From Eledone cirrhosa (taxonomy: Eukaryota), in the NCBI GenBank assembly GCA_964016885.1, contig OZ024764.1, positions 19,654,001 to 19,718,000 of the forward strand: a DNA stretch of 64,000 nucleotides, read 5' to 3'. The first letter of the stretch is position 1; every line of letters starts with the position of its first letter. Positions 11,660 through 64,000 of the stretch are shown here, one piece after another. Below the pieces are notes generated by a model that was given only the letters and a program-made list of their open reading frames with translations, made no database searches and was not told the DNA's origin. The translations under genes were made by a program, and so were the position numbers.

Positions 11660-13419
11660 AGTTATTCTTAAAAGTTGAGAAATATCTGTGATTATAATTT
11701 AATTTTGGTTCAGTTCCTTGTCTGTGATATCAGGGGACAATAGTTCAGTTCCTTGTCTGTGATATCAGGAGACTACGTTTACATATGTGGAATATATGTA
11801 ATGTAGATATATTATCTACATACCACTAGCAGTTTTGCTGCTGACTGGGTCCTCTTGAAGTGACAATATATACATATATATATATATATATATATATATA
11901 TATAGTAGACAAAAACACTTCTATATAAACGTTGAGAGATGTAGATGAAGATAATAGATGTTATGTAGTCTAAAATGTGTATATATAGTATCTATAGATG
12001 ACTGGTATCAGATTTTCTGGTGAAATCCTTGTTCTCGTATTACAGATTGTAATGGAACTCTCATTTGACACAACTGTAAAATAAGAATATATATGACAGT
12101 GTAAGACTGACGTTATGGAAGGAAAATTGTGTGTGTGTGTGTATAATCTTAATAAATAAGGATTGCTCACCACCGTATGTAGAAAAGTACACAATTTTCA
12201 TTCTGTTTACAACCAAAATATGCCAGGTGACACACTTCAGGGAACTTGTCTCTTACAGTGTCTTAGCCCCGCCATCACTTACCGTAATGCTACGGATGTG
12301 TTGACTTGCTTCAAATATGTGTGAGACATAAACAAAAAAAAAAACAATCATAAAACTTCCTTATTATGTTGGGGGGAGTAAACTGCTGATTAAATGTGAA
12401 ATAACCAGAGTCAGTATGATCTTATTCAGCTCCAAAGGACCTCATCTGAAACACAGCAATATACCACATAACATTGCTTCTGAAGTGTTTAGCTTTGTTA
12501 GTTCGGACTGTAAGTAGTATAGGGATAAAAGCTGGAGGGTTGATTAATTTCAAATAGTATCAGTCTTTCTTTGTTCTGTAAAATCAAAGACTGTAAAACT
12601 ACTTTATAAAAGCTAACACAATATTGTTAAACCTTCCTATAGATCAAATCATTTATAGTTTAAGCTGTTTCTAGACTTTCGTGGGATGTTACTCTCTCTC
12701 TCTCTCTCTCTCTGAATATCTAACACTTTAGTATCTCTCTCTGTATAACGGCCTATCTCTCTCTCTTTAAACGCGTCTGTAGTTTTCGTGTGATTCAACC
12801 AAGCAAAAAACATCTCTCTTTTATATATATAGATTGTAACGTTATTTATACAACGGGGTCGATAAAATAAAGTACCAGTAATGCACTGGCCTTGTGCCAA
12901 AAGTAGAAACAGTTATTTATACAACAGTGAATAAAATCTAATTGTACAAAATAATACGTACTTTATATTTCACGGCCAAATAAAATGTGGAACAACCAAT
13001 TCACGAAGTGAGGAAGTTTCTGGTGAAATGAAAGATTTAATCATGTAGATGATGGAACACATACTGTGAAACTTGTAGGACATTGCATCTGATCCATAAA
13101 ACATTTATATTTACCTTAACATGAGATAATTGCAACACAATATATAATTGTTTCTACTTTTGGCACAAGGCATAAAAAATGTTATAAAGATAGCAGGTAG
13201 GCGGTGTCGATGATAATGTTTCCGTCTCCTAATCAATACCGGTGTCACAAGCTAAAATCCCTGACCTAACTTGAAATATTTAGGTAATTCTGTTGTCGAG
13301 AAAATTATGTTTACCTTAACATTTTCCATCCCATTTTTTATTTTATTTTATTTGTTTCTGTTTATTACAAACTTTACATAATTAAATTGGGTAAAATTGT
13401 TCCACATTACAAAAATGTG

Positions 13420-13529
13420 ACATTGAAGCATGCGCAGTGGTCGACTTCCTGTCCACGTGTTAGTCTTCCTACAACATCATTTAGAAAACATTTCTGTAAA
13501 TACTAAACACCTGAGACTATAATGTAAGT
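13420..13529 (+). promoter_or_regulatory. Putative promoter and non-coding exon 1 of the cassette-1 ZNF
   Basis: GCATGCGCA (NRF1-like, 13428), ACTTCCTG (ETS, 13444), CACGTG (E-box, 13454), donor AAT|GTAAGT at 13524; the block recurs in all four cassettes. Confidence 0.6.
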
Positions 13530-13591
13530 ATTATGTCTATTAATATTGTAGATTTAAGCTCACTTTTCACATCACAAATATATATTTTCTT

Positions 13592-61616: not shown

Positions 61617-63924
61617 ATGTAGGTTACCAACACTAGGGAGGGAAGCATGTCCATCAGTGTCTTCTGATACATTAACTACCAGGAGGTCACCACATGAGAC
61701 AAAGACTACATTTCAAAGAAGGGTCACAAAAGAACTAAATACGAAAGTCCTCACAGCAAAAAGCAGAAGTGCTGTGCCCTGTGGATAAGACTGCAAAAGT
61801 ATTCGCCCCGGACGATGGACAGTGACACCCACTGCAACAGCCACTCCAATCTCATGGGACTCCCTCTTCAGAAGGGCCACCAACGTACAGAGGAGCTTGG
61901 CAGTACGGGGTCCAAGTACTTCTGAGGTCTCGATGGTGACCGGTGTGAAGAGACCTACAATTGATGTCATCCCAGTTATGTTGGACTGTAATATACTGGG
62001 GTATAGAGAGGCCTTAACCTGTCACAGCCGAGCCACCCTGGGTTGTGTCATCTAGGTACCAGACAGGTGTAACTAGACCATGTTGTCAACTGTCACCACC
62101 AATAGGAGTGAGGCGAGTGGGTCTCCCTGCGAGACACCATATATAAAAACGTATTTGCTAATTACTTTAATGAATAATTTGTTTCATACGTAATTATTAC
62201 TTTTAACACAATAGGATTTTGTACACGGGTTTGTTTGAAAACATCTTTCAAAGAAGTATGAGACAGTCTTTTGCAGTCTTCTGGAGTTGCGACCGATAGA
62301 TAGTATTAGCAATTGGAAAGACCAATGGAAACATTGTTTCCTCGGTCCGATTTGACTAAAAGTCGATCGTAAAAAAAAAATATATATTTATATATAGAGA
62401 GAGAGATAGAGAAACACAAACGTACACTACTGTAAAACATATGTAAGGGGAGACAACTCTTGTTACATCCCCCCTTCTTTTTGATATACGTGCTTTATAT
62501 GTTTTGTACAATGAACTCTGCTTTATTTTGTGTCCTAAGTAGATTTCTGTTTAAGTATTTACGAGATTCACAATGATTCACGGAACCAAGTTACTTACAT
62601 TGAGATATATTTCACATAGAATCACAACAAATGAAAATATTAAGTCAAATGAAAATATTAAGTCAACACTCTGTCAATCAGTCTCACATCACATGGGGTG
62701 CCTCTAATACTTTCTGAGACAGTCTCACCTCGAGTGATAGCAAGGCTAAGATGTTGGAACTACCAAACACCCTCATATGTATCACCTGACACCTCGGTAA
62801 GGAGAGCTGCCAACGATAACAAGAACCTCGTTGTCAAGGACCTATCTCCTCCAAACTTCTCCAACACCACAGACTAGAAAATTCTACTCTTTATTCCCTA
62901 TCAAATATATTTCAGTCTAGTCATTTATCTTGTATCTTGTATATGTATTTTCAAAACTAACTGTCACATTTGTGAGACCCCAGTTAGGGATGTTTTTGTC
63001 TCCCTCCCACATCCTACATGCTGTAGTAAAAGTGAGGGTCACTGCTTCTGTAGACGAACGAAATAAAAGTTAAACTACCAGTAATTATCGGCAAAGTATT
63101 TATTCCAGGCTGATGTTTGAGAAGCTGGGCTGCTGACAATGAAGTTGTGGTCACTGTTGGCAGCTGGCTTTACCGAAGTACCCGATGACTCTTGTGAGGG
63201 TACTTAGCTGTTTGGGTGGTTTAGCCTCCATATGACATGATTTTACTGAGATACCCGGTGATCTCTGTCAGTGTACTTAGCTGTTCTGGCGGTTTAGCCT
63301 CCACATGACATGATTTTACCGAGATACCCGGTGATCTCTGTCAGTGTACTTAGCTGTTCTGGTAGCTTAGCTTCCTTATAACCAGATCTTACCGAGATAC
63401 CCGATGACTCTTGTGATGGTACTTAGCTGTTCTGGTAGCTTAGCCTCCATATGACCCGATCTTACCGAGATACCCGGTGATCTCTGTCAGGGTACTTAGC
63501 TGTTCTGGCAACTTAGCCTCCATATGACCCGAGATACCCGGTGATCTCTGCCAGGGTACTCGATTGATCCAGTACCCTACTATTTCTACCAACAGGTTAT
63601 ATCGAGGTATCAAGTGATACTCTTTTCAAGTCAAGACCTCCTCTGCTGTCCTCTGTCTTCCAACTGCCCTGTTATTCTACAGACTCACGAAAGTGGACAC
63701 CACCTGAAGGAGAGAGTGGTTGGTGTAGTGGTCATCGCTGGCTATTGTCCGAGTGACACTGGTAAAATACACTACCTAGACTGAGGTAAAACGTCTACCG
63801 TCCATTCCTCACCACCACCACCTTACTTTCTCTATTTTAATTACATTTACTGTTTTCAACTTCATTTTTTATTACAAACTTTACATAATTTAATTCGGTA
63901 AAAATATTTTACGTCACAAAAAAA

Positions 63925-64000
63925 CATTGAAGCATGCGCAGTGGTGCAGTTGTCGACTTCCTGTCCACGTGTTAGTCTTCCTACAACATCATTTAGAAAA
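63925..64000 (+). promoter_or_regulatory. Start of a fourth cassette (putative promoter/exon 1)
   Basis: GCATGCGCA...ACTTCCTGTCCACGTGTTAGTCTTCC as at 13428-13470. Confidence 0.6.

Follow-up and report, generated by a model that had tools for sequence, protein, structure and literature searches.

The locus examined here raises the question of how tandem zinc-finger genes come to carry different finger arrays, and whether they form a dedicated generator of new DNA-binding specificities. The window is a 64,000-bp stretch of contig OZ024764.1 (positions 19,654,001 to 19,718,000) and holds three complete cassettes, each with an array of 84-bp C2H2 zinc-finger units, and the first part of a fourth. 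An earlier note, made from the sequence alone, described near-identical shells carrying fingers in new orders on a homogenised backbone, and proposed a PRDM9-like combinatorial generator, possibly directed at transposable elements (TEs). The evidence points with fairly good confidence to a young tandem cluster of finger-only C2H2 genes in which units have been lost, gained and hybridised since duplication, with purifying selection on the zinc ligands and probably moderate diversifying selection on the DNA contacts.

The cassettes were placed from the offsets of a self-BLAST comparison of the repeat-masked window. Cassette 1 (13361..30613, + strand) and cassette 2 (30614..47861, +) are each 17.25 kb long, cassette 3 (47862..63867, +) is 16.0 kb, and cassette 4 (63868..64000, +) is represented only by its start, which ends at the window edge. 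The periods between the 5' blocks, matched at 13363, 30614, 47862 and 63868, are 17,251, 17,248 and 16,006 bp. Divergence of the flanks was taken from six non-repeat three-way blocks (6,220 columns after removal of columns within 3 of a gap), in which 110 columns are private to copy 1, 85 to copy 2 and 96 to copy 3. The branch lengths are 1.8, 1.4 and 1.5%, respectively, resulting in a nearly star-like tree and a pairwise divergence of ~3%. The claim of three or more near-identical tandem cassettes of 16-17 kb is therefore supported. The shells share untranslated regions and TE relics as described, but they differ by more than scattered substitutions because copy-specific TE insertions and minisatellite lengths also separate them.

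An assembly artefact, with haplotypes stacked in tandem or finger order scrambled within arrays, would produce a similar picture. Arrays of 84-bp units are hard to assemble and no contig from the read runs spans an array, so finger order and the deletion in copy 2 described below rest on the assembly. However, the copies number four, more than a pair of haplotypes could give, and neither their star-like divergence nor their private insertions match such a pair. In run X1 the insertion-free junction has a depth of 2,130, whereas a contig from within the copy-1 insertion has 180; this ~12-fold difference is a rough hint of a multi-copy cassette, depth not being copy number. The mis-assembled haplotypes named in the earlier note as a possible objection, and artefact in general, are thus very improbable. 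Contigs of run X5, which has another species label, are ~1% off copy 1 at 26553-27339 and 24227-24614. Since they are closer to copy 1 than copies 2 and 3 are, the cassette expansion may predate that species split.

The three arrays contain 40 units, delimited from open reading frames (ORFs) and unit comparison, with Pfam matches in the first. Array A (20511..22046, +) is a finger-only ORF of 18 C2H2 units, array B (38234..39263, +) has 12 units at the DNA level, and array C (55529..56392, +) is an ORF of 10 fingers. The units are tandem Kruppel-type fingers, at least five of them of the form C-x2-C-x12-H-x3-H with TGEKP-type linkers. The earlier counts of 18, 12 and 10 fingers hold for DNA units but not for the copy-2 protein, in which a 2-bp deletion in unit 11 (~39107) results in a stop at 39107-39109 after 10 fingers. 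The HTEV* terminus, reported as shared, is out of frame in copy 2 owing to the same deletion. The finger at A6 and B2 is without its second zinc-binding His.

Every finger placement given in the earlier note is correct. The KNNK and QTYx fingers occupy positions 5-6 of copy 1 and 1-2 of copy 2, the KNNS-CSHH pair occurs three times in copy 2 as B3-B8, HSSSVRV is both B10 and C4, and DSSSFRV is A12. The claim of new orders is overstated. Ten of the 12 copy-2 units are within 5 nt of a copy-1 unit, and array B reads A5, A6, three rounds of A10 and A11, a KNNH unit, A12, a unit like A13 or C7, and the terminal finger. Copy 2 can be derived from the copy-1 order by at least ~6 finger-scale gains, losses or fusions (counted by eye) with no inversion of order, and is therefore colinear with copy 1 once losses and tandem gains are allowed. 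Copy 1 has an internal duplication of A9-11 to A14-17, whose units are 1-2 nt apart. In copy 3, four units lie within 5 nt of a copy-1 unit, and all of these follow the copy-1 order (A1-A4 correspond to C1, C2, C5 and C6); C4, of the A12 type, lies earlier than expected and is the sole copy-3 finger that may be displaced. The claim that each copy has its own array stands, the changes being whole-finger gain and loss together with hybrid fingers. There are 25 distinct contact signatures, five of which are common to more than one array, and of the 31 distinct finger adjacencies just one occurs in more than one array. With so few adjacencies in common, each intact copy would be predicted to recognise its own long DNA site. 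Going by other expanded zinc-finger families of metazoans, TEs would be the likeliest class of target.

Hybrid fingers were sought with a chimera score, which counts the mismatches removed by one crossover between two parents. It was calculated for the 40 units over their first 72 bases, since the terminal units are gapped. The observed score of 57 compares with 27-28 +/- 5 in simulations without recombination on the maximum-likelihood (ML) tree, and was reached by none of 500 simulations in each of three rate settings, although recurrent change at constrained codons could inflate it. Units C3, B1, B2 and B10 are clear hybrids; joining an A14-type 5' half to a C2-type 3' half, for example, explains C3 with one mismatch instead of five. 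The 3' part of B1 (38321-38344) and C9 (56228-56311) are 13 and 11 bases from every other unit. These distances are far above the 3% expectation, so both may have been converted from related genes outside the window. The depth of the finger region in X1 is 12-35 times that of the flanks, which suggests a large pool of related fingers.

Out-of-register recombination between similar fingers is the likely source of the losses, tandem gains and hybrids of 84-bp units. Six families of non-coding minisatellites (31, 39, 48, 62, 71-73 and 79-82 bp) also vary in copy number between the cassettes. The 39-bp minisatellite just upstream of exon 2 (19114..19565, no strand assigned), which serves as a neutral control, has 11.6 copies in cassette 1, 26.6 in cassette 2 (36233-37271) and 10.6 in cassette 3 (54241-54654). 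Downstream of the array are minisatellites of 79-82, 48 and 71 bp (22699..25488 in cassette 1, no strand assigned); the 48-bp repeat has 6.5, 8.1 and 4.9 copies in cassettes 1-3, and the 71-bp repeat 6.6 and 4.6 copies in the first two with none called in the third. Because these non-coding repeats change copy number as well, general repeat instability is a sufficient source of the finger rearrangements. The arrays would then be rearranged by the same instability as their non-coding neighbours rather than by a dedicated generator, and selection would sort the products, as in birth-and-death evolution.

The finger types are considerably older than the cassettes that carry them. Unit identity within each array is only 81-82%, and the mean unit distance (0.177-0.186) is equal within and between arrays, which contradicts the earlier claim of a homogenised backbone. 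In a tree of the 40 units, clusters form by finger type across copies and not by copy. Synonymous divergence among the units is 0.20-0.24 versus ~0.03 in the flanks, about six times higher; therefore, the finger types arose before the cassettes, and the arrays reflect their rearrangement rather than fresh homogenisation. Finger order is mostly colinear, as an objector to reshuffling might expect, but the divergence of the units is not that of the flanks. The concentration of differences in the recognition helix is confirmed, with a pN of 0.49 at positions -1, 2, 3 and 6 and 0.08 in the backbone. These four positions hold 0.39-0.41 of the amino-acid diversity (0.30-0.34 if three positions are used).

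Selection on the fingers was estimated by ML and from close pairs of units. The dN/dS ratio (omega) at the contact codons -1, 2, 3 and 6, the measure proposed in the earlier note, is 2.8 by ML (p=0.0125 versus 1), and omega outside the helix is 0.54 (p=0.006). In the close-pair analysis 16 of 20 matched pairs were used, the four with more than 8 differences being dropped. Nonsynonymous changes number 0/150 at the zinc ligands, a significant deficit (p=0.001), 15/146 at the contact sites and 26/525 in the other backbone, and synonymous changes 18/336. Contact change in these pairs exceeds the flank rate (p=5e-5). The last finger, whose position is fixed by the 3' flank, carries a different helix in each of the three copies, with codons that are rare elsewhere in the pool; 5 of its 12 contact bases are variable compared with 4.8% of flank columns (p=1.5e-4, for a finger chosen post hoc). 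The zinc ligands would be kept by purifying selection, while the contact residues are probably under moderate diversifying selection. Retained function with moderate, uneven diversifying selection is the fairest reading.

The gene model begins with a conserved 5' block (13361..13591, +), a predicted promoter and non-coding exon 1 judging by its motifs and donor. The block is 230 bp long and CpG-rich (CpG observed/expected ~1.0), and carries ATGCGCA, ACTTCCTG and CACGTG in all four copies. A donor-like GTAAGT is found at 13524, 30772 and 48031 in the three complete cassettes. The predicted exon-2 leader (19693..20510, +) follows a polypyrimidine-CAG acceptor, and a second, weak acceptor-like AG at 20501-20502 lies 8 bases ahead of the array A start codon. 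The finger ORF starts at 20511 and only 9 residues precede finger 1. A relic of the acceptor/leader region, 67-74% identical, is found at 23226-23602 and at the equivalent sites in copies 2 and 3, ~3.4 kb downstream of the exon-2 original in each cassette, which suggests an older decayed gene copy.

The encoded protein appears to consist of fingers only, in agreement with the earlier note. The copy-1 ORF matches PF00096 and PF13465, and the best 25 of its 27 Pfam families are all finger-type or finger-overlapping, with no KRAB, ZAD or SET among them. The upstream 91-aa ORF of copy 2 matches no Pfam family, and the other long cassette ORFs (8 scanned with Pfam) are TE relics or repeats. A 43-codon ORF after the acceptor was considered as a relic effector domain and rejected; neither of its two candidate matches reached E<=10, and a search of 1.84 billion sequences gave no match at E<=0.001, which is weak evidence given the short query. 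A further coding exon could still lie upstream. None of four proteins was matched by exact look-up. Homolog searches returned generic zinc-finger proteins of at most 60% identity, with one Octopus bimaculoides protein among the 120 homologs listed; the motif HC[DE]ICGK occurs in one of the same 120.

Run X3 (88 Mb of contigs, library type not on record) provides a hint of transcription. The X3/X1 depth ratio is 0.15-0.23 over 19.7-22.5 kb versus 0.004-0.010 in non-repeat flank bins, a 15-25-fold enrichment. Long X3 pieces in the leader and trailer have depths of 62-119, compared with 6-35 elsewhere. X3 is probably RNA, and the pattern suggests that the zinc-finger family is transcribed, with X3 depth resolving the family and not single copies. 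A skip of 19853-20461 was considered as an intron and rejected. Its presence in the DNA runs as well and its lack of splice ends mark it as a deletion from the genomic sequence of some copies. This 607-bp deletion is found in contigs of X1, X3 and X5 (two species labels) and takes out the greater part of the leader, which is therefore much shorter in the copies concerned.

Several results weigh against recombination, selection and function in these arrays. A PHI-type recombination test on the 40 units was not significant (p 0.17-0.39). The omega tests presume one tree, an assumption that conversion violates according to PMC5519329, and recombination inflates the contact result of p=0.013. The contact excess in close pairs is not significant relative to synonymous change (ratio 1.9, p=0.075), and falls to a ratio of 1.6 (p=0.21) if the last finger is left out. 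The control trio A12/B10/C4 has one contact base among 8 variable bases and so no contact excess. The other backbone ratio of 0.92 is near neutral and would also fit relaxed selection. Translation is not assured because 11-13 ATGs in the predicted leader precede the start codon of the fingers. X3 depth pools all paralogs of at least 88% likeness from a library of unrecorded type, and no spliced junction was found among the 15 of 1,824 joints listed.

These points could be gathered into a history of near-neutral decay, in which the duplicates are mostly relaxed or dying, their arrays drift in the manner of coding minisatellites, and the helix excess was inherited from the older finger pool and spread by conversion. 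The frameshift in one of the three copies, the missing His of A6/B2, and the similar turnover of the adjacent non-coding minisatellites would fit such a history, as would the ATG-rich leader, the near-neutral backbone and the weak contact excess. The unchanged zinc ligands do not fit it, nor do two long ORFs that are intact at 3% divergence, a last finger with three helices built from pool-rare codons, and a region that looks transcribed. Decay as the whole explanation is therefore rather unlikely, and a cluster under selection, with uneven diversification of its contacts, is preferred.

The window also contains an older, divergent gene of 18 fingers (9716..11659, - strand, from ORF and unit analysis), which lies head-to-head with cassette 1 and was used as a comparator. 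Synonymous divergence among its units is 0.42-0.48, about twice that of the 40 cassette units, and their identity is 72%. The contact-site diversity share is 0.32, and ML omega is 0.67 at the contact codons (p=0.30) and 0.23 outside the helix. The contrast drawn earlier between the cassettes and this gene is thus real but only about two-fold (pS 0.42). Its chimera score of 53 has no null and was not used. Seven 45-bp repeats (97% match) at 11300-11615 encode a linker-like 15-residue unit before the fingers and are a second coding minisatellite. The start of the older gene and the predicted cassette-1 promoter (11659-13524) are head-to-head, ~1.8 kb apart and raised in CpG, and this may be a shared promoter region.

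Several TEs and repeats are associated with the cassettes. A decayed LINE with an RVT_1 fragment (15823..18900, -) lies in the predicted intron; its E value of 6.8e-6 misses the curated cut-off, and the element is common to copies 1 and 2 and partly absent in copy 3. A decayed relic that resembles a DNA transposon and carries a Spin-doc zinc finger (26254..27800, -; PF18658, E 9e-7) is present in all three copies. The 690-bp insertion found only in copy 1 (13592..14281, +) has no Pfam match; judging by eye, we take it to be transposase-like. Copy 3 alone carries a GC-rich insertion of ~4.3 kb (48492..52780, +), identified by comparison and Pfam as a young non-LTR retroelement with broken reverse transcriptase frames. 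Outside the cassettes, 1720-7787 is a 6-kb satellite in which a 50-bp unit is repeated 123 times; the end of a short repeat at ~15540-15581 matches the same unit.

The known system closest to the generator proposed earlier is PRDM9. Like PRDM9, the cassettes have 84-bp units that turn over by duplication and conversion, with diversity focused on contact residues. An omega of 2.8 at contact codons, hybrid fingers and adjacencies confined to a single array in 30 of 31 cases would suit homogenised minisatellites under strong diversifying selection, with many alleles and new TE-directed specificities. The contact share of 0.39-0.41 would be in the top few percent of vertebrate zinc-finger (ZNF) genes, a share of 0.414 ranking 6 of 313 and 11 of 235 in Table 1 of PMC5519329, if the same four contact positions are used there. 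In the same table human PRDM9 has 0.687 and mouse PRDM9 0.910, so the share here is well under that of most complete PRDM9s. The units are also only 82% identical with no within-gene homogenisation, finger order is mostly kept, non-coding minisatellites turn over as well, and one of three copies is frameshifted. No SET was found in the ORF and no KRAB, so the KRAB-SSXRD-SET architecture of PRDM9 is not seen, and PRDM9 is one hypervariable locus whereas the cassettes are multi-copy paralogs. A PRDM9-grade generator is therefore quite unlikely. A broader idea places the cassettes between KRAB zinc-finger protein (KZFP) clusters and PRDM9, as an effector-less invertebrate family in which many tandem copies and a large genome-wide pool swap whole and half fingers, quickly enough that every copy, and perhaps every allele, gains a new long recognition site under diversifying selection, forming a multi-copy, population-level generator of specificities against young transposons; it is an unlikely one on the present evidence.

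The young KZFP clusters of mouse arose by tandem and segmental duplication of poly-finger genes in TE-rich settings with pseudogenes mixed in, and their fingerprint arrays are mostly unique to one strain, as reported in PMC5363842 and PMC12575710. The cassettes resemble them in their tandem poly-finger duplicates, TE-rich setting and frameshifted copy, and their paralogs likewise diverge by finger gain and loss and by contact-residue change. They differ in that no KRAB was found in the copy-1 ORF. PMC3126818 describes finger duplication and deletion as a common path of divergence in primate KZNF genes, with positive selection on contact residues in recent paralogs. By comparison, many finger-scale events separate all three cassette copies at a flank divergence of ~3%, and the copies show no effector domain. 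New repeat copies generally diverge fast under relaxed plus positive selection, according to PMC5120217. Selection on contact residues is also seen in the zebrafish FiNZ-ZNF clades, and TE binding is predicted for octopus ZNFs (both from PMC10547256). Like the FiNZ-ZNFs, the cassettes are clustered, young poly-finger paralogs; unlike them, no upstream conserved domain was found.

In coleoid cephalopods the C2H2 repertoire is very large and clustered, and has undergone lineage-specific duplication (PMC12513265, PMC9068888). As presented there, these papers deal with gene-level phylogeny and expression, whereas the cassettes display finger-level turnover. No open-access paper was found whose title or abstract start describes such turnover in cephalopod paralogs. 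The process itself is already known from young mouse and primate KZFP paralogs, and no new mechanism is shown here. The locus is a clean, dated example of finger turnover outside the vertebrate KRAB family, in which the flanks are a built-in clock and the non-coding minisatellites a neutral control for the rate of array turnover. PMC12513265 raises as an open question whether the expanded C2H2 genes of cephalopods are in a race with transposons. If the host is a cephalopod, the cassettes offer a tractable test of such a race because their three proteins have termini and finger types in common and hardly any finger adjacencies. By domain content the locus is neither a KZFP cluster nor PRDM9, but it works like a young KZFP cluster.

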